Notes under the pieces: generated by a model
The model's input: the letters and a program-made list of their open reading frames with translations, nothing else
The model's database searches: none
Told to the model about the DNA's origin: nothing
Part shown: positions 683 through 34,450 of the stretch, in pieces
How the letters are laid out: every line of letters starts with the position of its first letter
Position numbering within the stretch: the first letter of the stretch is position 1
Source of the DNA: Armatimonadota bacterium
GTDB lineage: Bacteria; Armatimonadota; UBA10988
Direction of reading: 5' to 3'
Assembly: GCA_016183835.1 (NCBI GenBank)
Contig: JACPDV010000037.1
Coordinates: 1 to 36,324, forward strand
DNA length: 36,324 bases
Program-made: the position numbers and the translations under genes

Positions 683-2021
683 TCACGACAGGCCCGCCAG
701 GATCCGCTCGGCCGCCGCCGCCAGGTCGTCGGCCACGCACACCCCGGCCAGTCGGCCGTGCCGGCGCAGCCGGGCCTCCGTGCTCGCGCCGCCGCCGGTC
801 CGCACCAGGATCGGCGTCACCCCCGCCGCCGCACCGGCCGCCAGGTCGCCCTCGTGGTCGCCGACCATGAACGAGCGGCTCAGATCGAGCCCCATCCGCC
901 GCCCGCAGGAGGTAGTCCGGCCGCGGCTTGCCGTGCGGGTCGTCCGCCAGGCTCGGGTGCACCGCCCAGCTTCCGGCCCCGGTGCTGAAGTAGTACGCAT
1001 CCCAGCTCGCGCCGTCCGCGGCCAGCGCCCGCGCCAGGTGGTCGAAGACGCTGCTGACCACGGCCGTGGTCACGTACCCGGCGCCCACCGCACTCTGCGA
1101 GCTGACCACCACCAGGGCGTAGCCGGCCTCCTTCAGACTGCGGAGCGCGGTGCCGGCGCCGGGCATCGGCGTCAACTCCTCCGGCCCGCTCCGCCAGCTC
1201 GGCTGCACGTTGAGCACCCCGTCGCGGTCGAGGAAGACGCACGGCCGGCCCTGCTCCACCGGGCGATCGAGCAGCGGCACTTCGGTCATCGTCACGGTGC
1301 CGCTCGCCACGTCGAACAGCCGGTAACGATGCGGGAACTCGCAGAACGCGGGGGCGGTGGTGAAGGCGCAGCCGCCCTCGCGGAGCAGCTCGGTGCCGAG
1401 GTGGTAGTGCCCCGAGACGGCCAGGACGACGCGCCCGGAGTCCGCCAGCGTGCGCGTCAGGTGTTCGCCTTCGAGGTAGGTGTGCGGCCAGCCCTGGTTC
1501 AGCTCGGGCGTGATGACGTAGTGCTGGAGGTGGATCTGCGGCGGCGAACCGGGCTCGGCGAGGACCCGCTCGAGCAGTGCGCGCTCACGGTCGAGCCGGC
1601 GCGGTACGTTGGCGTAGAAGTCGCGGTCCCAGAAGCTGACGAACCGGCACCCGCCGCGGTCTAGAACGGGCGCGGGCGGGAGGACGCCTTGCATGACGGC
1701 GATCTTGTCATGGTTGCCGGGGAGCGCCACCCAGGGCAGCCCGCAGCCGTCGAGCAGCTCCCTGAAGAGGTGGTAGTCGGCCTCGATGTCACGGTCCCAC
1801 TGCTCGCGGCCGTAGTCGTAGTAGTCGTCGCCGGAGAGGATGTAGCCGGGCACGTCGAGCAGGTCGCCGAGGACAGCGATCAGCTCGGCGCCGCGTTCGC
1901 GGGCGTCGCGGAGGCCCTGCTGGAAGAGCCGAGGCATGAGCCGGCTGCGGCGCGCGGCGATGCTGCTGGTGCCCGGCTGGTGGCAACGGGCGTGGAGGTC
2001 GGCGAAGGCGGCGAAACGCAT
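683..2021 (-). pseudogene. metallophosphoesterase fused to a GmhB-like HAD phosphatase; reading frame broken by a 1-nt indel near 893-908
   Basis: The N-terminal half has calcineurin-like motifs (MRFAAFADLH, GDLLD, GNHD, SGHYH). It is followed by HAD motifs FLDRDGVLN, SSQSAV and GKPRP in the 627..2099 ORF. HAD motif IV (FMVGDHEGD) and a natural C-terminus continue in a different frame (ORF 683..1000). On the minus strand the joint reads ...ctgcgggcggcggatggggctc... The start was chosen at ATG 2021 (MRFAAFADLH) rather than 2099. Confidence 0.75.
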
Positions 2022-2069
2022 GGGGGGAGGTATCGTCGACGGCGGCCGGACCTCCTCCTCGGTTTCGGC

Positions 2070-2075
2070 TATACT
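2070..2075 (+). promoter_or_regulatory. candidate -10 box TATACT upstream of the heparinase-like gene
   Basis: This is an AT island within the 76-bp divergent intergenic region, 22 nt upstream of ATG 2098. GGAG at 2087-2090 is a plausible SD. The same 11-mer GCTATACTCGG recurs upstream of nagB. Confidence 0.3.
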
Positions 2076-2097
2076 CGGTGGGGCGGCGGAGCGAGAC

Positions 2098-4497
2098 ATG
2101 GGCCACTGGCTGGTCGGCCCGGCGCTGATTGTGTGCGCCTCGGCGCTGGCGCTGGACCTGGACGAGCGGCCGCGCGGGGCCGGTGAATGGGGCTATCGTC
2201 CCGAGCCGGGCTCCGCGGCGGAGACCACGCCACCCGGCTTCGTCTGGCGGCCGACCCGGGGCGTGGCGACCTGGGAGCTGGAGGTCGGCCGAGGCGACGA
2301 TTTCGAAGCAGTCGTCTACCGGGCAGAGAAGCTCCGCTACAACGTCCACTGCCCGCCAGAGGCGTTCCCGCCCGGCAGCTACACCTGGCGCTATCGCGGG
2401 ACCGGAGCGGACGGCGAAACCACTGCCTGGAGCCAGGCGCGCACCTTCACCGTGCGCCCGGGCACGCCGGAGCTGCCGCTCCCGCCGCGCGACGAGCTGC
2501 TGGCCAGGATCCCCACGGAGCACCCGCGCCTGTTCATCCGCCCCGAGCAGCTCGACTCGCTCCGGCGCCGGATCGACGGCGACCTCAAGCCGCAGTACGA
2601 CGGGCTGGCGGCCGAGTGCAAGAAGCTCGTCGCCGCCCCGCCGCCCACGGCGGAGCCGCCCAAGTACCCCGACGGGACGGTCCGCGGCTCCGACCCCTGG
2701 CGGGCGGTCTGGTGGGGCAACCGGGAGTACACCAGCCGCGCCCTCAACGGTGCCGCCACGCTGGCCTTCTGCTGGCGGCTGGACGGCAACGAAGCCTACG
2801 GGCAACTGGCGCGCCGGATCCTGGTCGACTGCCTCCACTGGGACCCCGTCGGCGCCACCGGCTACCGCTACAACGACGAGGCCGGGATGCCCTACAACTG
2901 GGGCGTCAGCCGCACCTACACCTTCGTCCATCCGCTGCTGACCGAGGACGAGCGCGCCCTCGCCCGGCGCGTGATGAAGGTCCGCGGCGACGAGATGTAC
3001 CGGCACCTCTACCCCAAGCAGTTCTGGACGCCCTACGACAGCCACGCCAATCGCGCCTGGCACAAGCTGGGAGAGATCGGGATCGCCTTCCTCGGCGAGG
3101 TCGAGGGCGCCGATGAATGGGTCTGGTTCGCCGTCAACGAGTTCTTCAACACCTACCCCGTGTGGAGCGACGACGACGGCGGGTGGCACGAAGGCGTGTC
3201 CTACTGGTCCAGCTACCAGTCGCGCTTCACCTGGTGGGCGGACGTGATGCGCGCCGCGATGGGCATCGACGCCTACCACAAGCCGTACTTCGCCAAGGTC
3301 GGCTACTACCCGATGTACCTGCTGCCGCCCAACACCGCCGACGGTGGGTTCGGCGACCTGACTGAGAACGTCAAGAGCCGCAGCTACGCCAACCTGGTGG
3401 CCAACTTCGCGGCGCAGGCCGGCAACGGCCACTGGCAGTGGTGGGTGGCGCAGCATGGGGACCCGGCGCAGTTCCGCGACGCCGGGTACGTCGGCTTCGT
3501 CCGCGGCGCCCGCCAGCCGGTGGCGCCCACGCCTCCCACCGACCTGCCCACCTCGCGCCTGTTCCGCGGCATCGGCCAGGCCATGCTCAACACCACCTTG
3601 GAGGACGGCAACCAGAACGTGCAGGTGCTGTTCAAGTCGAGCCCGTTCGGGAGCCAGTCACACGGCTACGAGGCGCAGAACTCGTTCCTCCTCTGGGCCT
3701 ACGGCCAGCGGCTCCTGATCCGCACCGGGCGGCGCGACAGCTACGGCAGCGAGCACCACGCCAAGTGGATGTGGTCCACCCGCTCGGTCAACAACCTGAC
3801 CGTGGACGGCGTGGGCCAGCGGTCCCACAGCGCAGGCTCCCGCGGCGAAGTGACCGCGTTCATCACCACCCCGTCGCTGGACGCCGTGGCCGGCGAGGCG
3901 GGCAACACCTACCGCCAGACGCGCGAGGGGAAGGACTCGCCGCTCCTCCGGCGCTTCACCCGCACCGTCCTCTTCGCCAAACCGGAGCTGGTGGTGATCT
4001 ACGATCGTGTCGCGGCGGACGAGGCGCACCGCTGCGAGTACTGGCTCCATGCGCTGAACCGGATCGAGACGCCGGACCAGCACAGCTTGCTGGTGTCAGC
4101 CGGGGAGGTGCGCTGCGCCATCGACTTCCTGACGCCTGCGGGCCTGACGTTCAGGCAGACCGATCAGTACGACCCGAACCCGCGCGAGCGGGTGACGGTG
4201 CGCGAGTGGCACCTCACGGCGACGGCCGAGCCGCGGGAGCAGGTGGAGTTCGTGACCCTCTACAGGCCCTACCGCGCCGGTCAGGAGCCACCGCGCGACG
4301 CCACCTTGACCCCGCTCGACGGCGGCTACGCACTGCGCGTGAAGCTGACCGACGGTGAGCTGGCGGCGCTCCTGCCGAGGCGCGACGATGCGAAGCTCGC
4401 TGCCGTGGGGCTCGAGACCACGGGCGTGGTGGCCGCCGAACGACGCGACCCGGCGGGCAGAGCGCGTGACCGGGTGAGGCTCGATCGGTTGCCCTGA
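2098..4497 (+). CDS. secreted heparinase II/III-like polysaccharide lyase family protein (DUF4962-type N-terminus plus Hepar_II_III C-terminal region)
   Basis: The start was chosen at MGHWLVGPALIVCASALALD (signal-peptide-like), preceded by GGAG. The N-terminal pattern (PPGFVWRP...WELEVG...YTWRYR) and the later SPFGSQSHGYEAQNSF...HHAKWMWSTRSVNNLTVDG resemble heparinase II/III-like and alginate-lyase-like proteins. Confidence 0.8.
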   Translation: MGHWLVGPALIVCASALALDLDERPRGAGEWGYRPEPGSAAETTPPGFVWRPTRGVATWELEVGRGDDFEAVVYRAEKLRYNVHCPPEAFPPGSYTWRYRGTGADGETTAWSQARTFTVRPGTPELPLPPRDELLARIPTEHPRLFIRPEQLDSLRRRIDGDLKPQYDGLAAECKKLVAAPPPTAEPPKYPDGTVRGSDPWRAVWWGNREYTSRALNGAATLAFCWRLDGNEAYGQLARRILVDCLHWDPVGATGYRYNDEAGMPYNWGVSRTYTFVHPLLTEDERALARRVMKVRGDEMYRHLYPKQFWTPYDSHANRAWHKLGEIGIAFLGEVEGADEWVWFAVNEFFNTYPVWSDDDGGWHEGVSYWSSYQSRFTWWADVMRAAMGIDAYHKPYFAKVGYYPMYLLPPNTADGGFGDLTENVKSRSYANLVANFAAQAGNGHWQWWVAQHGDPAQFRDAGYVGFVRGARQPVAPTPPTDLPTSRLFRGIGQAMLNTTLEDGNQNVQVLFKSSPFGSQSHGYEAQNSFLLWAYGQRLLIRTGRRDSYGSEHHAKWMWSTRSVNNLTVDGVGQRSHSAGSRGEVTAFITTPSLDAVAGEAGNTYRQTREGKDSPLLRRFTRTVLFAKPELVVIYDRVAADEAHRCEYWLHALNRIETPDQHSLLVSAGEVRCAIDFLTPAGLTFRQTDQYDPNPRERVTVREWHLTATAEPREQVEFVTLYRPYRAGQEPPRDATLTPLDGGYALRVKLTDGELAALLPRRDDAKLAAVGLETTGVVAAERRDPAGRARDRVRLDRLP

Positions 4498-4501
4498 ACC
4501 G

Positions 4502-6637
4502 CTACGGACGCAGCTCGCCCGCCAGGAACCGCTGCGCCAGCTCCGAGGCGGGCAGCGGCTCGCCCCGCAGCGCCTTGGCCACCGCGTCGGGATCGTGGAG
4601 CTGGGCGTAGCCGGCGCACGGGTAGAGGCTATCGCCGATGCGCCAGGTGACGGCCTTGGCCGCCGGCTCGCTGCCGTGCCAACGGCCGTCGGCCGTGGCG
4701 ACCAGCCACTCGCCGGGCTCATAGGCCACCAGCGAGGCGCGAAGGTCGCCGGTGACGGCGTCCCACAGGCGGGTCACACCGTCGCGCCCGGCGGCCGCGA
4801 TGGCCTTGCCATCGGGCGACACCGCCACCGCGCGGGAGCCGGCTGGCGGGCCGGGCAGCACGCCACGCGGCTTCCCGCCGGGCAGGTCCCAGAGGTGCAC
4901 GCCGAAAGGCCCTTGACCGGGAGATCCCGCCGATGCCGCCGCGAGCCAGGCGCCATCGGGAGCAAACGCCAGCGACAGGAAGCTGCCGTGAGCGCCCGTC
5001 AACTCGCCCCTGAGCGCCCCGTCGGCCGGGCCCCACAGCTTCACCTGCCCGTCACCGCCGCCACTGGCGAGCAGCATGCCGTCGGGGGCGAACGACAACG
5101 CGGCGGCCCTGTCCGTGTGGGCATCGATGGTCCGTAGCAGAGCGCCGGTCTCGGTCTCGTAGAGCCGGACGTCGCCGCGGTAGAACATGCCGTCGCGCCG
5201 CAAGCTCGCGGTGGCCGCGAGCCGCCCGTCGGGCGAGAGCGCCACGGCCATGACCGTCGACGGGTGGCCCGGCAGCTCGAGCAGCTTTGCGCCGGCGGCG
5301 GTGTCGAACAGCCTGGCCACCAAGTCACCGGAGGCGAGCAGCCGCGTGCCATCGCCGGAGAATGCCACCGACCCGACGCCGCGCTCCTGCACGGCGATGG
5401 TCCGCAGGACCTGCCCGGTAGCGGGCTCCACCAGGCGCACCACCCCGGGCCCGCCGCCCGAGGCGCAGGCGAGGACTCGTCCGTCGGGCGACAGCCGCAG
5501 GTCGGCCACGCGCTCGGGGAACCGGGCCAGGACGCGCACCACCGCGGCGCGCAGATCCCAGGCGCGCACAGCGCCGTCGTCGCCCGCGGTGATGAGCGCC
5601 GTGCCGTCGGGGCTGAACGCCAGCGCGGCGCTGCCGAGCTTCGGCGGGTCGAGGCGGCGGACCGCCCCGCCGTCGGCCGGCTGCCAGAGCAGGATGGACC
5701 CGGAGCCCACCGCCACTGTCAGGCCACCGGGCAGGAAGGCCAGCGGCCCGGCCACTCCGGGCTCGACGAGCCGAGCCACCGGCTTCAGCGTGGCCACGTC
5801 CCAGAGGAACAGCTCGTCTCGGCTGCCGCCGGCGGTGGAGGCCAGGCGCGCGCCATCGGGGGAGTACGCCAGCGAACGGACGGTCTGGTTCCGGGTGTGA
5901 CCCTCCAGCCGCCCACGCTCCGACCAGGTGGCGGTGTCCCACAGCACGATCACCGTGCCCAGCGGCCCGCTTGCAGCCAGGGTGGCGCCGTCGGGCGAGA
6001 AGGCCAGCCCATCGACGTAGTCGCGCTCGTCGCCCAGTTGCCGGACCAGCCTCCCGGTGGCAGCATCCCACATGCGCAGCCCGGACGGCCCCGCCCCGAC
6101 GCCGCAACCGCTGGCCAGCCGCTTGCCATCGGGCGAAAACGCCAGCGCCTGGATGCGCACTTGCGGGTGCGGGCCGCAGGTCGCCACCACCTGACCCGAC
6201 CCCCGGTCCCAGACGAAGACCTGCCCGCCGACCGCCGCCGCCACGCGTTGCCCATCCGCGGAGACAGCCACGGCATGCGTGGCGCCGATGTCGCCCGGCG
6301 GGCCGGTGCGGCCCTCGGGCCGTGGCGGCTCGAGCGTCCGGAGCAGGCTTCCGGTCTCGGGATCCCACACTCGTACGGTCCCGTTCGGTCCGCCGCAGGC
6401 GACGAGACGGCCGCCGGGGTCAAAGGCCACAGTGGTGGACTCGGCGGCCTGAGCCCGCACCGGCCGGTTGGCCCCGTTCGCCAGGTCCCAGAGCCGCAGG
6501 TCGCCGTCGCGGCCCGTGGTGGCCGCCAACTTCCCGTCTGGCGCCAGCGCCAGGCTCGTGATCCCGCCCAGATGGCTGCTCGGCGGCACCAGCTCCGGAG
6601 GTGCACCAGCCAGCAGCACCACAAAAGTCCAGACCAT
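4502..6637 (-). CDS. WD40-repeat protein (multi-blade, probably two beta-propellers) with an N-terminal hydrophobic signal/anchor
   Basis: More than 12 repeats of the type (S/A)(L/V)AFSPDG..LA(S/T)...DG.(V/L)RLWD. The start was chosen at MVWTFVVLLAG (ATG 6637), 21 nt after the stop of the upstream gene. The listed ORF extension to 6871 overlaps that gene and is Gly/Arg-rich. Confidence 0.85.
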   Translation of the reverse strand: MVWTFVVLLAGAPPELVPPSSHLGGITSLALAPDGKLAATTGRDGDLRLWDLANGANRPVRAQAAESTTVAFDPGGRLVACGGPNGTVRVWDPETGSLLRTLEPPRPEGRTGPPGDIGATHAVAVSADGQRVAAAVGGQVFVWDRGSGQVVATCGPHPQVRIQALAFSPDGKRLASGCGVGAGPSGLRMWDAATGRLVRQLGDERDYVDGLAFSPDGATLAASGPLGTVIVLWDTATWSERGRLEGHTRNQTVRSLAYSPDGARLASTAGGSRDELFLWDVATLKPVARLVEPGVAGPLAFLPGGLTVAVGSGSILLWQPADGGAVRRLDPPKLGSAALAFSPDGTALITAGDDGAVRAWDLRAAVVRVLARFPERVADLRLSPDGRVLACASGGGPGVVRLVEPATGQVLRTIAVQERGVGSVAFSGDGTRLLASGDLVARLFDTAAGAKLLELPGHPSTVMAVALSPDGRLAATASLRRDGMFYRGDVRLYETETGALLRTIDAHTDRAAALSFAPDGMLLASGGGDGQVKLWGPADGALRGELTGAHGSFLSLAFAPDGAWLAAASAGSPGQGPFGVHLWDLPGGKPRGVLPGPPAGSRAVAVSPDGKAIAAAGRDGVTRLWDAVTGDLRASLVAYEPGEWLVATADGRWHGSEPAAKAVTWRIGDSLYPCAGYAQLHDPDAVAKALRGEPLPASELAQRFLAGELRP

Positions 6638-18992: not shown

Positions 18993-19238
18993 ATGGCGAA
19001 GGCACTGCGATACCACACGACCGTCCTGCCGGGCAACCGGGTGGAGGTTGAGGCACCGGAAATGGCGGTGGGGCAGCGGGTGGAGGTGATCGTGGTCGAA
19101 GAGGATGCGGTCGCCGACGGGCCGCGCATGACCATCGAGGAGATCCTAGCTGACCTGCCCCCGGGAACTGGTATCTTCCAGTCTGCCGCGGAGGTGGATC
19201 GCTATCTCGAGGAAGAGCGCAACTCGTGGGACGAATGA
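18993..19238 (+). CDS. type II antitoxin (VapB-like partner of the downstream PIN toxin)
   Basis: 81-aa acidic ORF whose stop overlaps the PIN gene start (ATGA). The C-terminal AAEVDRYLEEERNSWDE tail is typical of small antitoxins encoded upstream of PIN toxins. The family was not identified precisely. Confidence 0.7.
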   Translation: MAKALRYHTTVLPGNRVEVEAPEMAVGQRVEVIVVEEDAVADGPRMTIEEILADLPPGTGIFQSAAEVDRYLEEERNSWDE

Positions 19239-22658: not shown

Positions 22659-22770
22659 CCGGCATCTCCCATCGCAATACTCGTGCAACATCCACCTATA
22701 GCGCTCCCGTTCCGGGGATGCTACTATCCGGCTATCGGTCGGCAGGGTAGTTCGCCAAAGGAGGCCACGA

Positions 22771-23508
22771 ATGCGTCCACGCACTGCTCGCGGGGGCTTC
22801 ACGCTGATCGAGTTGTTGGTCGTGATCGCGATCATCGCCATCCTGGCGGCGATCCTCTTCCCGGTCTTCGCCAAGGCCCGGGAGAAGGCGCGCCAGGCGA
22901 GCTGCGGCTCGAATGTCAAGCAGCTCACGCTGGCCATGCTGCAGTACCTGCAAGACTACGATGAGCGCCTGCCGCGGTTCAACTGGGGTGAGCGGGCCTG
23001 CGGCGGGAGCCCGGCCTCGCCGGGCATGCTCATGTGGTGGGCGGCCATCTACCCCTACACGAAGAACACCCAGCTCTACGTGTGTCCGAGCGACAGCGGC
23101 AACCCGAAGTGCCTGAATGGCAACGCCGCGGTGCCCTGGCAGGCGATGGTGCCGGTGTGCTCCTACGGCATGAACGAGCCGCTCAGCGCCAAGTGCTGCA
23201 GCCGGGACTTCAAGGACATGCGCTACCCGGCCGAGGTGCTGCTGATGGGAGACTGCCGCTCCTCCCTCGGCGGTTGGGAAACCAACGCCCCGCGCATCCT
23301 CAACCGCTTCGCGCTGGCGCGGACGGGCGCCCCGTGCATCGGCTGCAATGCCAGCGCGCAACTGCCCGCCGGAGCGGAAGACTGGGCCCGGCACAACGGT
23401 GGCGAGAATATCGGCTTTGCGGACGGCCACGCCAAGTGGATGAAGCTGACCAACATCAAGCCCTCGTCGTACGGCGGCCCGATCCGCTACCGGGCGTCGG
23501 AGTTGTGA
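22771..23508 (+). CDS. prepilin-type N-terminal cleavage/methylation domain protein, DUF1559 / H-X9-DG family
   Basis: [37 protein letters not shown] is the classic class III signal. [16 protein letters not shown] is the H-X9-DG motif. A strong SD (AAGGAGG) lies 6 nt upstream. Confidence 0.9.
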
Positions 23509-32800: not shown

Positions 32801-33076
32801 TGGGACGAGCGCCCGCAGCCGGTGACGGCGAACGACCCGGACCTGCCGACCATCGTCTACAGCGTGCTTGGCAAGGAGGCGGTGGCGGCGGTGGTGAGCT
32901 ACGCTGGCGAGGACCGCGACGTAACACTGACCATCGACCCGGCGGCGCTGGGGTTCAAGGCGGGCTACACGGTGACCGACGTGGAGACGGGCGAGGCGGT
33001 GGCGGTGGCGGGGGATCGGGTGCAGTTCCGGATGAAGAAGCACGATCTCAAAGAGCTGCGCCTCTCCGCGGGGTAG
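29825..33076 (+). CDS. large secreted protein with an N-terminal CBM9/DOMON-like module; putative glycan-active enzyme of unassigned family
   Basis: The start was chosen at MRFLLPCLLVAVPHVLAAE (signal peptide), with GGAGAC 8 nt upstream. PPALDGRIDATEWAAA...DSVEVW...WECALP resembles CBM9-type modules. The 1083-aa ORF has normal composition. The catalytic family was not recognised. Confidence 0.8.
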   Translation: MRFLLPCLLVAVPHVLAAEYVAPLTPQPPALDGRIDATEWAAAVGFDGFAWEGRLERRRVRAWVTAAPDTIYVAIRSQLPAEGALVAAIDKDIEKLVFDDSVEVWLAMHARGNAKQDPGWDGGWRVASTQHDGWWDWECALPLAAVAPGRRSTDGAWGINLCRNWKQDWAFSSLGGGGYAPGKEVLFRFVPGAPAIQHTQRRDPAGTDVMSVVAIAGPARVQVVQRLQRDKMPDVLVDEHHDIAAGKPFEVPLTVDDQNTSGTFTLSLEVTSEDGQTVYYRRQVGWRAGPRDWTWKTAKPVKLPVDLQIAYYPYAAKLRVLADVSGLPPEAKLQHLLVTVRPKGKAAALKSLTLNQFDPNGRQAAELALPGLDGEYEVVAKAVGANVPAGEVVKPLTRTKFEWEHNPAGRKPAVYAPFTPLKLTGKTLDAVLRRHELNGLGLWDQVTAAAQNTGVSKPLLAAPMRIRATTANGDQTVQPAALGVVQPGEARMVLSGGFRAGPLRAATRTTWDLDGLAWTELTLQPTGGQTVQALTLEIPFRNDAATLMHAMNEGIRHVIYSQAVPAGEGVVWDAGKLPPGELPKGFCTYCFVGNPNRGIAWFAENDKGWSWDAGKPNLELVREGATLTLRVHLISKPLAIDQPRTLRFGLQAAPAKPRLAPWRYRFYRDNYSLLGTDINWFALGDCGSVYPAHKDLYLWEMLARGNKEKLSDQDVEKVVGYGLKYWEPYGPDRVNAYKAHVRYNLRSRYGAKMVFYYNRASFQLADEFQTFEDEWALSDYRTVGPGNGIGEVKIVPCESYDDHALYWYGKSFDVGGNQGVYWDNWFICPTQNTTMTDAYRTPDGSVVPAAGILGMRELCRRTFNYMNERKMTPITFPHMTSTNILPMHGFATVQYDWEWKYSEGDVQNRFPREYLLLVSNGDLAGTWPVLLGDHGPQAEDPWTQRTFAAVSIVHELNPSTAGWQKCYALSWKPFIEPIIALLDDPALVVYRYWDERPQPVTANDPDLPTIVYSVLGKEAVAAVVSYAGEDRDVTLTIDPAALGFKAGYTVTDVETGEAVAVAGDRVQFRMKKHDLKELRLSAG

Positions 33077-33098
33077 TTAGCCAAAGGAGGAGAAAGAC

Positions 33099-33148
33099 GT
33101 CATTGCGAGGAGGTCCGCCGACGAAGCAATCTCGTCAGCCAGCCACCC
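33099..33148 (+). repeat. left copy of the GIY-YIG-associated ~50-nt repeat (core gtcattgcgaggaggtccgccgacgaagcaatc)
   Basis: The core 33099-33131 is a perfect 33/33 reverse complement of 33562-33594. The full 50 nt match 33623-33672 in inverted orientation at 45/50. Confidence 0.85.
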
Positions 33149-33192
33149 CTCGCCGGTTCGCTCCGCAACAGCCCGCCAACCAAGGGCGCCCC

Positions 33193-33513
33193 ATGTCATC
33201 GGACAAGCGCGGCTACGTCTACATCATGACCAACGTCCGGCACACCGTGCTCTACACCGGCGTGACCAGCGACCTGATCCGCCGCGTCTACCAGCACCGC
33301 GAGGGCCTATGCCCGGGCTTCACACGGCGGTACAACGTGGTGAAGCTGGTGTACTTCGAGGACCACGACCGGATGGACGATGCGATCGCCCGCGAGAAGG
33401 CGATCAAGGGCGGATCGAGGGACAGGAAGCTGACGCTCATCGAGAGCATGAACCCGGGGTGGCGTGACCTGTACGACGACGTTGCCCCCGGTGGGAATTC
33501 TGCGGAGGAGTGA
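33193..33513 (+). CDS. GIY-YIG nuclease family protein (small stand-alone URI-domain, COG2827/YhbQ-like)
   Basis: KRGYVYIMTN...VLYTGVTSDLIRRVYQHREG...VKLVYFE...AIAREKAIKG...K is the canonical small GIY-YIG pattern. 106 aa. Confidence 0.9.
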   Translation: MSSDKRGYVYIMTNVRHTVLYTGVTSDLIRRVYQHREGLCPGFTRRYNVVKLVYFEDHDRMDDAIAREKAIKGGSRDRKLTLIESMNPGWRDLYDDVAPGGNSAEE

Positions 33514-33561
33514 CGCGATGGCAGCACGGACCACTCTCGTCGGGGGCTTGTTGGCCAACGC

Positions 33562-33594
33562 GATTGCTTCGTCGGCGGACCTCCTCGCAATGAC
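33562..33594 (-). repeat. internal inverted copy (core only) of the GIY-YIG-associated repeat
   Basis: gattgcttcgtcggcggacctcctcgcaatgac is the exact reverse complement of 33099-33131. Confidence 0.85.
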
Positions 33595-33622
33595 AGTGGT
33601 TGGTGTGCGGGCGAGGGTGAGG

Positions 33623-33672
33623 GGGTGGCTGGCCAACGCGATTGCTTCGTCGTCGGACCTTCTCGCAATGAC
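33623..33672 (-). repeat. right inverted copy of the GIY-YIG-associated ~50-nt repeat
   Basis: gggtggctggccaacgcgattgcttcgtcgtcggaccttctcgcaatgac matches the reverse complement of 33099-33148 at 45/50. Its terminal ...caATGac supplies the ATG of the downstream ORF. Confidence 0.85.
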
Positions 33673-34450
33673 GATTGGGCTTGTGCTGCTGTCTGCCTGC
33701 GGGCGCCCGGCCTCCGCACAGAGCCGTTCAGTCGCTGCTCTGGTCCCGCCCGCCTGGGAGCCCGGCCTGGTCTACTACCAGTCGTTTGACGCCGAGCAGG
33801 GATTGCCGGAGGTGAACACCGGTGGGCTGCAGGCCCAGATGGCGCTGGGCCTCTGCGCCGGCGGGTTCCGCGGGCGGTGCGGCGGACCGGAGGGCGCCGG
33901 CGACCCCAACCAGAAGGCCCTCCGGCTGGTGGCGAAGGACGACACCCTCTCGCCCCACCACCCACTCTCCGTCCTGCTGTGGTGGAGGCTGCCCGCCGAC
34001 CTGCCCGTCAACGGCGGGTTCGACATCCTCTACGTCAACGCCAGGCAGGGCTTCGTCAGCACCTTCGCCCGCGGCGGGCCGTGGTGCGGGCTGGCCGCGA
34101 CCGCCGGCGTGGTGCAGGTCTACTACCTCCCCGGGATCAGCAACGTCAACGGCATCTACGCCTCGCCGCTGCGCGCGGGGCTCGACCTGCGCGGCGGCGT
34201 GTGGCACCACAGCGCGATGGTGATCAGCGCCGGCTCGTTGGTGGAGGTCTACACCGACGGCGCGAAGGTGTTCGAGACCCGCATCCAGGGCCGGCCGTTC
34301 GCCGCGGAGGACGAGTTCCGCACGCTCACACTGGGCGGGTGGGGGCTGTCCATCGACGAGGCGATGGTGCTGCGCCGGCCGCTCGACGCCGAGAGCCTCG
34401 CCGACTACGTGCGCGGCATGTGGCAGATGCGTGCGGCGTATGGATGGTGA
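33668..34450 (+). CDS. putative lipoprotein with a LamG/concanavalin-A-like lectin domain
   Basis: MTIGLVLLSAC has a lipobox (LSAC). The later ...WHHSAMVISAGSLVEVYTDGAKV... is LamG-like. An in-frame alternative ATG at 33518 would translate both repeat copies (LANAIASS.DLLAMT twice), which seems unlikely. Confidence 0.55.
   Translation: MTIGLVLLSACGRPASAQSRSVAALVPPAWEPGLVYYQSFDAEQGLPEVNTGGLQAQMALGLCAGGFRGRCGGPEGAGDPNQKALRLVAKDDTLSPHHPLSVLLWWRLPADLPVNGGFDILYVNARQGFVSTFARGGPWCGLAATAGVVQVYYLPGISNVNGIYASPLRAGLDLRGGVWHHSAMVISAGSLVEVYTDGAKVFETRIQGRPFAAEDEFRTLTLGGWGLSIDEAMVLRRPLDAESLADYVRGMWQMRAAYGW

Follow-up and report, generated by a model that had tools for sequence, protein, structure and literature searches.

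Two described systems bear on the locus considered here, in which a short gene for a GIY-YIG nuclease, ssn, lies between inverted repeats in a 36,324-nucleotide (nt) stretch of DNA from an Armatimonadota bacterium (lineage UBA10988; assembly GCA_016183835.1, contig JACPDV010000037.1), the whole of which is termed the window below. The first comprises the CGTC-tagged repetitive extragenic palindromes (REPs), which were described by Di Nocera in 2013 (BMC Genomics; PMC3733652) as four families spread over five phyla including Planctomycetes. Their stems start with AT, they form head-to-head dimers, and the dRS3 repeats of Neisseria and the RPE-4 and RPE-6 repeats of Rickettsia are members; many lie downstream of open reading frames (ORFs) and are probably transcribed, and they were judged to "apparently lack a dedicated transposase" (PMC3733652). 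The second is the SsnA protein of Neisseria meningitidis (Nm), a 94-amino acid (aa) single-domain GIY-YIG protein of the cd10448 family reported by Chenal in 2025 (Nat Commun; PMC11893778). SsnA binds the NTS repeat CGTCATTCCCGCGMAVGCGGGAATCYRG only as single-stranded DNA (ssDNA) and on only one strand, does not bind RNA, acts as a site-specific ssDNA nuclease cutting a few nucleotides 5' of the repeat, and modulates natural transformation in Neisseria. The same study found Ssn-related motifs (SRMs) near 71% of ssn homologues, on both sides in 42%, and noted the insertion sequence (IS)-like look of the NTS-ssnA-NTS arrangement, drawing an analogy to REP/RAYT systems while mobility was not demonstrated (PMC11893778). 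Beyond this paper, the literature collection searched contained no publication that joins SsnA with GIY-YIG in this context or names cd10448.

The repeat anatomy of the window locus, its family membership, the linkage of gene and repeat across phyla, covariation within the repeat and a syntenic gap were all observed directly. Taken together they make it very probable that the locus is an Ssn/SRM module, namely a gene for a GIY-YIG site-specific ssDNA endonuclease bracketed by its cognate inverted hairpin repeats.

The 106-aa product of ssn matches a single domain, PF01541, over residues 7-78, and profile searches against Pfam and NCBIfam found no second domain. It shows 54% identity over 89 aa to the SsnA of N. 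gonorrhoeae (pairwise E=1e-34, 101 bits), the likeness reaching residue 97 of the window protein, and a tblastn search against N. gonorrhoeae in PLSDB (a 7.3-Gb database) returned E=5e-23; both values lie below the threshold of E<1e-10 to Neisseria SsnA by which homologues were defined in PMC11893778. These comparisons used the gonococcal orthologue, taken from chromosomes mislabelled as plasmids in PLSDB, and not Nm NMV_0044. In the alignment, residues Y10, Y21 and E68 fall opposite a Tyr, a Tyr and a Glu of gonococcal SsnA that correspond to the residues mutated in PMC11893778 (Y6, Y17 and E64 of Nm SsnA), indicating that the catalytic triad is kept in a protein which, like SsnA, has a single domain of about 100 aa. 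The window protein also shares 48% identity with a homologue from Sphingorhabdus whose gene has exact NTS repeats of the Neisseria type at its flanks. The GIY-YIG catalytic fold is also shared with homing endonucleases such as I-TevI and the Seg proteins and with UPF0213/YhbQ. Unlike the homing endonucleases, however, the window protein has no DNA-binding extension, and its gene lies in a chromosomal operon with no intron or phage context; similarity to the UPF0213 structure 1zg2, the sole solved relative found by sequence, amounts to 23 bits as against the 101 bits to SsnA. As side observations, PLSDB lists as plasmids both N. gonorrhoeae chromosomes (2.17 Mb) and a Sinorhizobium meliloti chromosome (3.7 Mb), under the accessions NZ_CP119142.1, NZ_CP119140.1 and CP090106.1, and in N. 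gonorrhoeae strain 2022NG-0032 the ATG of ssnA is out of register with the reading frame.

On either side of the window ssn gene lie inverted copies of a repeat of about 50 nt, one on the left (SRM-F) and two on the right (SRM-R1 and SRM-R2; Table 1), at the coordinates given in the initial annotation. An inverted-repeat search recovered SRM-F and SRM-R2 as an outer pair with arms of 52 nt that are 90% complementary, and also an inner pair with arms at 33099-33155 and 33538-33594 (57 nt, 86% complementary). The third, internal copy that had been noted at this locus is equally real, with the 33-nt core at 33099-33131 being the perfect reverse complement of 33562-33594. Of a 31-nt core, CATTGCGAGGAGGTCCGCCGACGAAGCAATC, the plus strand has one occurrence (33101-33131) and the minus strand two, at 33562-33592 with no mismatches and at 33640-33670 with two, making three occurrences in the window as against none in 100 shuffles. 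The core of SRM-F reads CGTCATTGC-GA-[GGAGGTCCGCCGAC]-GAA-GCAATC-TCG and is followed by a shared tail of 18 nt. The repeat is built of a CGTC tag, a 5-bp outer stem ATTGC/GCAAT (the partial palindrome recognized earlier) enclosing a GA/GAA internal loop and an inner hairpin of variable sequence, and a final C. A generic detector, defined as GTC, a palindrome of at least 5 bp and then C, which returns occasional chance matches, identified the tags of the three copies as CGTC-ATTGC, TGTC-ATTGC and CGTC-ATTGC; all three show the SRM frame of a YGTC tag, a palindrome starting with AT, and then C. Both right copies belong to one 78-nt tandem direct duplication (33543-33620 and 33621-33698) with 73% identity over the unit. 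Comparable tandem repeat arrays with a spacing of 47-162 nt flank ssn homologues elsewhere, for example at loci L004, L131, L185 and L186. A further SRM-like match on the minus strand at 19104-19132 (GTC, a 5-bp palindrome ATGCG/CGCAT, then C) apparently lies in coding sequence and is probably a chance occurrence.

A motif scan with CATTGCGAG-N13-CGAAGCAATC, using one genome per species, showed that the repeat core is not confined to this locus: the motif is present in at least 120 loci, and the matches listed include Alphaproteobacteria, Chloroflexota, Patescibacteria, Planctomycetota, Gemmatimonadota, Omnitrophota, Clostridia and others. Alignment of 140 distinct copies revealed that the sequence itself, beyond the structure, is conserved across phyla. 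Within the tag, G3 is at least 90% conserved and T4 is invariant; given that both lie outside the search pattern, the conserved unit can be defined as YGTCATTGCGAG...CGAAGCAATC. The 13 variable bases form a small covarying hairpin, with 178 double-change cells as against 66±5 in shuffles, none of 500 shuffles reaching 178, and controls with slid partners giving 28-70 such cells. Most copies are inverted doublets composed of a long copy, a spacer of 10-30 nt and a shorter inverted copy, and a GIY-YIG ORF lies near the motif in only one of the 120 motif-selected loci listed. Solo doublets resembling miniature inverted-repeat transposable elements or REPINs, which the initial annotation had proposed to look for, exist in large numbers. 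A perfect ATTGCGAG-type repeat at 432-463 of a 2949-nt contig assigned to a Bathyarchaeia metagenome-assembled genome (MAG; L029) could result from mis-binning or from a real cross-domain presence. The Neisseria NTS pattern CGTCATTCCCGCGNANGCGGGAATC likewise occurs in many non-Neisseria phyla, the matches listed including Dehalococcoidia, Planctomycetaceae, Bacteroidota and Sphingomonadales, often as inverted doublets; a scan of genome contigs with this pattern gave mainly non-Neisseria loci among the matches listed, with one ssn.

The linkage of gene and repeat was assessed in the 80 closest homologues of the window protein, which are 49-68% identical to it and come from many phyla. An identical copy of the protein was not present in the contig index, and its closest homologue among genome contigs shows 66% identity. 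The motif CATTGCGAG..CGAAGCAATC lies within 400 nt of the gene in 43 of these 80 loci and on both sides of it in 30, and nearly all of the top 26 homologues have it near the gene. Close to the gene there are 1.76 motifs per kb, compared with 0.085 in the remainder of the same loci, an enrichment of about 21-fold. This establishes the suspected co-occurrence of repeat and GIY-YIG gene, and the view that the gene and its inverted repeats form one unit is upheld by the presence of the same repeat beside homologues in many phyla. With the generic detector an SRM is found near at most 72 of the 80 homologues, a figure that is an upper bound owing to chance matches. The type of palindrome shifts with the divergence of the protein: ATTGCGA predominates (38 of 80 loci), chiefly among the closer relatives, and more divergent homologues carry ATCCTGA, ATTCTGA, ATCCTGG and other palindromes. 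Homologues from Rhizobium and Sinorhizobium have CGTCATCCCAGGG... and CGTCATCCTCGGG... The confinement of the three window copies to one locus in 36 kb might in itself be expected of a palindrome that arose by chance or is peculiar to this locus and is functionally unrelated to the ORF, but this explanation is refuted by the absence of matches in shuffles, the occurrence of the repeat in many phyla and its enrichment beside homologues, and can for practical purposes be dismissed.

Comparison with the SsnA/NTS system reveals further common features: in both, the gene lies between inverted hairpin repeats with a palindrome-AATC frame and extra tandem copies, the distribution crosses phyla and most repeat copies are solo. 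However, the NTS repeat has a continuous 9-bp ATTCCCGCG stem, whereas the window type has the ATTGC/GCAAT stem, the GA/GAA internal loop and the variable inner hairpin within 31-32 nt; in addition, the window module lies inside an operon, and its repeat falls outside the published SRM pattern. The CGTC-tagged REPs resemble the window repeats in their CGTC or TGTC tag, AT-starting stem, short 3' tail, head-to-head dimers and presence in several phyla, but the families CGTC-1 to CGTC-4 have stems of 8-9 bp with loops of 4-5 nt in place of a 5-bp outer stem, internal loop and inner hairpin. Moreover, no dedicated protein was found for them in PMC3733652, whereas the window repeats flank ssn. A more distant parallel is offered by the REP/REPIN-RAYT (TnpA-REP) systems and the IS200/IS605 elements, with their single-copy gene between inverted hairpins, dispersed solo doublets, recognition of ssDNA hairpins, lack of target-site duplication and largely vertical, domesticated behaviour. 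These encode HUH/Y1 transposases, unlike the window locus, where the repeats enclose no ORF other than the GIY-YIG gene; RAYT-associated REPs carry a GTAG and not a CGTC tag, and the window flanking sites lie on opposite strands instead of the same strand. Given that the repeats were published in 2013 (PMC3733652), and the nuclease link and IS-like layout in 2025 (PMC11893778), the suggestion that this locus is a candidate for a new element class does not hold.

Several observations weigh against assignment of the locus to the Ssn/SRM system. The published SRM pattern, HGTCWYN(0-2)YYVSBRHN(0-5)WNVSBRGN(0-2)RNCYNB, has no match in the window and none among 146 related copies; the experimentally critical SRM features, namely GTC 5' of the palindrome, the palindrome and the C immediately 3' of it, are nonetheless present. 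Only three repeat copies occur within the window, all at the ssn locus. Both substitutions in SRM-R2 fall in the inner-hairpin segment and break inner pairs. It is this copy that joins the downstream ORF, and it may be in decay or subject to a different constraint. The predicted ssDNA folding of the window copies is weak (z of about 0), with the 5-bp outer stem and two Watson-Crick pairs in the inner hairpin. Finally, the evidence for insertion discussed below comes from one distant syntenic comparator with 38-45% identity.

The folding results also bear on the proposal that the repeats act chiefly in the transcript of the operon, where they would stabilise mRNA, terminate transcription or regulate translation, with their nearness to the GIY-YIG gene being incidental or cis-regulatory. 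The covariation of the inner hairpin would suit such a role, as would the downstream, probably transcribed position of many REPs (PMC3733652) and the co-orientation of the three genes at this locus, through which the repeats would be transcribed. On the other hand, searches of Rfam at the gathering threshold and at E<=10 gave no relevant family, no terminator-like site was found, and RNA folds of single copies were no better than those of shuffles. The conservation of sequence as well as structure across phyla, the specific enrichment of the repeat in ssn neighbourhoods and the failure of SsnA to bind RNA (PMC11893778) also argue against this proposal, which we regard as highly improbable in comparison with an Ssn/SRM module whose repeats would be recognized as ssDNA.

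Table 1. Coordinates of the ssn locus and its flanks within the window
Feature	Position	Strand	Evidence and remarks
Upstream host gene, GH123_N-like, 1118 aa	29720..33076	+	Pfam GH123_N E=2e-15; left border of insertion site
Shine-Dalgarno (SD)-containing 20-mer GGGTAGTTAGCCAAAGGAGG	33071..33090	+	overlaps stop codon of upstream gene
Left Ssn-related motif (SRM-F)	33098..33149	+	inverted pairs with both right copies; core with 0 mismatches; scan for YGTC, palindrome and C
ssn, single-domain GIY-YIG nuclease of the Ssn family, 106 aa	33193..33513	+	PF01541 E=7e-15; similarity to SsnA
GGAGGAG SD (33504-33510) inside ssn 3' end, with ATG 33518-33520 at a spacing of 7 nt	33504..33520	+	direct reading; ATG in frame with downstream lipoprotein ORF
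Inner right SRM (SRM-R1)	33538..33594	-	core same as SRM-F; 31-mer with 0 mismatches; generic scan
Outer right SRM (SRM-R2)	33622..33673	-	2 mismatches; generic scan; in 78-nt tandem duplication; end supplies ATG 33668
Downstream host gene, LamG-like lipoprotein	33668..34450	+	Laminin_G_3 E=3.5e-5, below Pfam cut-off; right border of insertion site

The initial annotation had further proposed that the cassette landed between a ribosome-binding site (RBS) and its coding sequence. The upstream gene, ssn and the lipoprotein gene are all co-oriented, and a single syntenic relative of this region was found, in a Planctomycetaceae MAG (L201). Its ORF at 1501-4812 is 45% identical to the upstream gene over the full length to the C-terminus, and the orthologue of the downstream gene is 38% identical. 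In L201 the stop codon of the upstream gene overlaps the start codon of the downstream gene (ATGA) and the cassette is absent, implying that the module of about 590 bp is an insertion relative to the L201 arrangement. That part of the proposal which places the unit between two genes that are contiguous, and indeed overlapping, in a relative is accordingly borne out by this comparison.

The evidence for a split RBS is more equivocal. The leader GGGTAGTTAGCCAAAGGAGG does recur with 19 of 20 identities at 22745-22764, 6 nt upstream of the ATG of a gene starting at 22772, with no such recurrence expected by chance. The similarity ends at 20 nt and the 20-mer is absent from all of 328 loci examined; it may be a leader or a signal for translation initiation that is peculiar to this genome. 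The claim that the copy at the ssn locus has been orphaned is correct to the extent that no ATG or GTG follows at 5-10 nt, but 12 nt after GGAGG there is a TTG (33103) that shares its reading frame with the ATG of ssn (33193). Hence, the leader could drive an N-terminally extended form of Ssn and need not be orphaned. On the right side, the outer copy does end in ...CTCGCAATGACG, with ATG 33668 in frame with the lipobox-containing ORF MTIGLVLLSAC. However, the downstream frame is open from 33464 to 34450, through both right repeats, and contains three in-frame ATGs, namely 33518, which is preceded by GGAGGAG, and 33590 and 33668, each derived from a repeat end and with no SD. A start at ATG 33518 would add 50 residues, including two ...LANAIASS(A/S)DLLAMT... 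copies, ahead of the lipobox.

A stronger version of the insertion scenario holds that the module is an active, autonomous IS-like element, with Ssn as transposase or homing nuclease and the repeats as terminal inverted repeats, which recently landed between the RBS and start codon, its end re-supplying the ATG, and of which the solo doublets are non-autonomous derivatives. The splitting of the RBS implies a pre-insertion allele AAAGGAGGAGAAAG-ATGACGATTGGG, and is in keeping with the ACG found 6 nt after the SD 20-mer at 33071, given that an ATG stands at equal spacing after the copy at 22745. The cassette occupies a space between the flanking genes that does not exist in the syntenic L201, SRM-F and SRM-R1 share identical 33-nt cores, the repeat-gene-repeat layout is constant across phyla, and solo inverted doublets number in the thousands. 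Moreover, synteny around ssn is lacking at two of four Bosea loci and at two Spirochaetes loci, and S. meliloti Ak57 (CP090106.1, L329) carries in its gltA-lpxB spacer a deleted cassette (161-322), composed of a repeat, the last ~28 codons of ssn and an inverted repeat, directly upstream of a complete one (445-817). The deleted copy exemplifies, in nature, a non-autonomous derivative formed by deletion.

Other observations argue against such an element. The occurrence of ACG at both junctions, pointed out in the initial annotation, is no target duplication but a one-base palindromic extension, C-GTCAT...ATGAC-G with complementary Y...R flanks, seen in 76 of 107 doublets. Doublets elsewhere show no target-site duplication, with direct flank identity in 8 of 107 at 1 nt, which is a depletion, and in one of 107 at 2 nt; the absence of such a duplication and of any DDE ORF likewise separates the locus from classical DDE-type transposons bounded by terminal inverted repeats. 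GIY-YIG nucleases are hydrolases of DNA for which neither covalent intermediates nor catalysis of strand transfer is known; any movement would consequently need host recombination or replication functions. The GC content at third codon positions is 0.90 in ssn, close to the 0.93-0.96 of host genes. The ssn locus is syntenic across five Thiobacillus species, in which the flanks are more conserved than ssn itself, and in two Desulfocapsaceae genomes. Among 50,697 phage records there is one weak ssn match, and ssn is absent from all 34 viral contigs carrying the motif. Moreover, the role that the Neisseria enzyme plays in transformation is one at the level of the host (PMC11893778).

Comparisons of plasmids, chromids and metagenomes gave no filled/empty allele pair, and metagenome contigs yielded no empty allele with a wobble-tolerant right-flank pattern or by protein search. 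Three candidates for an empty site were rejected. In Novosphingobium aromaticivorans pNL2 and two related plasmids the intergenic region is wholly replaced, and in Rhizobium sp. CIAT894 an IS4 element forms the left flank and leaves no clean boundary. A 192-nt presence/absence polymorphism among S. medicae chromids, seen in WSM419 (L330, 560-860) relative to SU277 (L331), is a tandem duplication that includes a CGTC-tagged repeat and is thus not a clean insertion; S. medicae strains with a single copy carry a degenerate repeat (CCGCTATCC...). On the whole, the ameliorated codon usage of ssn and the synteny of most of its loci within genera point to a resident gene, and the data speak against recent or frequent movement; we therefore consider an active IS-like element unlikely.

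Returning to the Ssn/SRM module, the following sequence of events may be proposed, in which the cutting of ssDNA and the sites of the nicks are predicted from homology with N. meningitidis SsnA. The protein would bind its repeat only as ssDNA and in one orientation, recognition probably resting on the tag YGTC, the palindrome that starts with AT and the C that comes next, and would nick a few nucleotides 5' of the tag. The predicted top-strand nick lies at ~33092-33097 and the predicted bottom-strand nicks just right of 33594 and just right of 33673, so that all three would fall just outside the repeats. The module appears to have entered an operon between two genes whose counterparts in a related genome overlap, and would now be resident, as suggested by its host-like composition and its co-orientation with the operon. 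The right repeats, being in frame with the lipoprotein ORF, may give it a start codon or signal peptide. The biological role of the module could be ssDNA restriction or control of recombination, as opposed to that of a selfish REP/RAYT-like element.

A more specific scenario, which we advance only tentatively and regard as doubtful, is that the Ssn/SRM module entered in a transposition-like manner between the SD and the first lipoprotein codons, with no target-site duplication, its end …GCAATGAC now supplying the start codon and part of the signal peptide, and that the ATTGCGAG-type repeat represents a major specificity class that spans phyla and eludes the published pattern. If true, this would provide the first natural before/after evidence of Ssn modules moving as units.

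The additions made here to the published work are modest, namely a new Ssn member, a syntenic insertion comparison, and the recognition of a widespread repeat type of bipartite build that escapes the published pattern. They extend the Ssn/SRM system to a further host lineage. Given that the CGTCATTGC-GA-[hairpin]-GAA-GCAATC type lies outside the published pattern, the reported 71% association of ssn with SRMs is suggested to be an underestimate. Ssn/repeat pairs are potential sequence-specific ssDNA-cutting reagents, for which a new specificity class would be of some practical value. The syntenic gap suggests that these modules can enter an operon between translationally coupled genes, which bears directly on whether Ssn modules are mobile.

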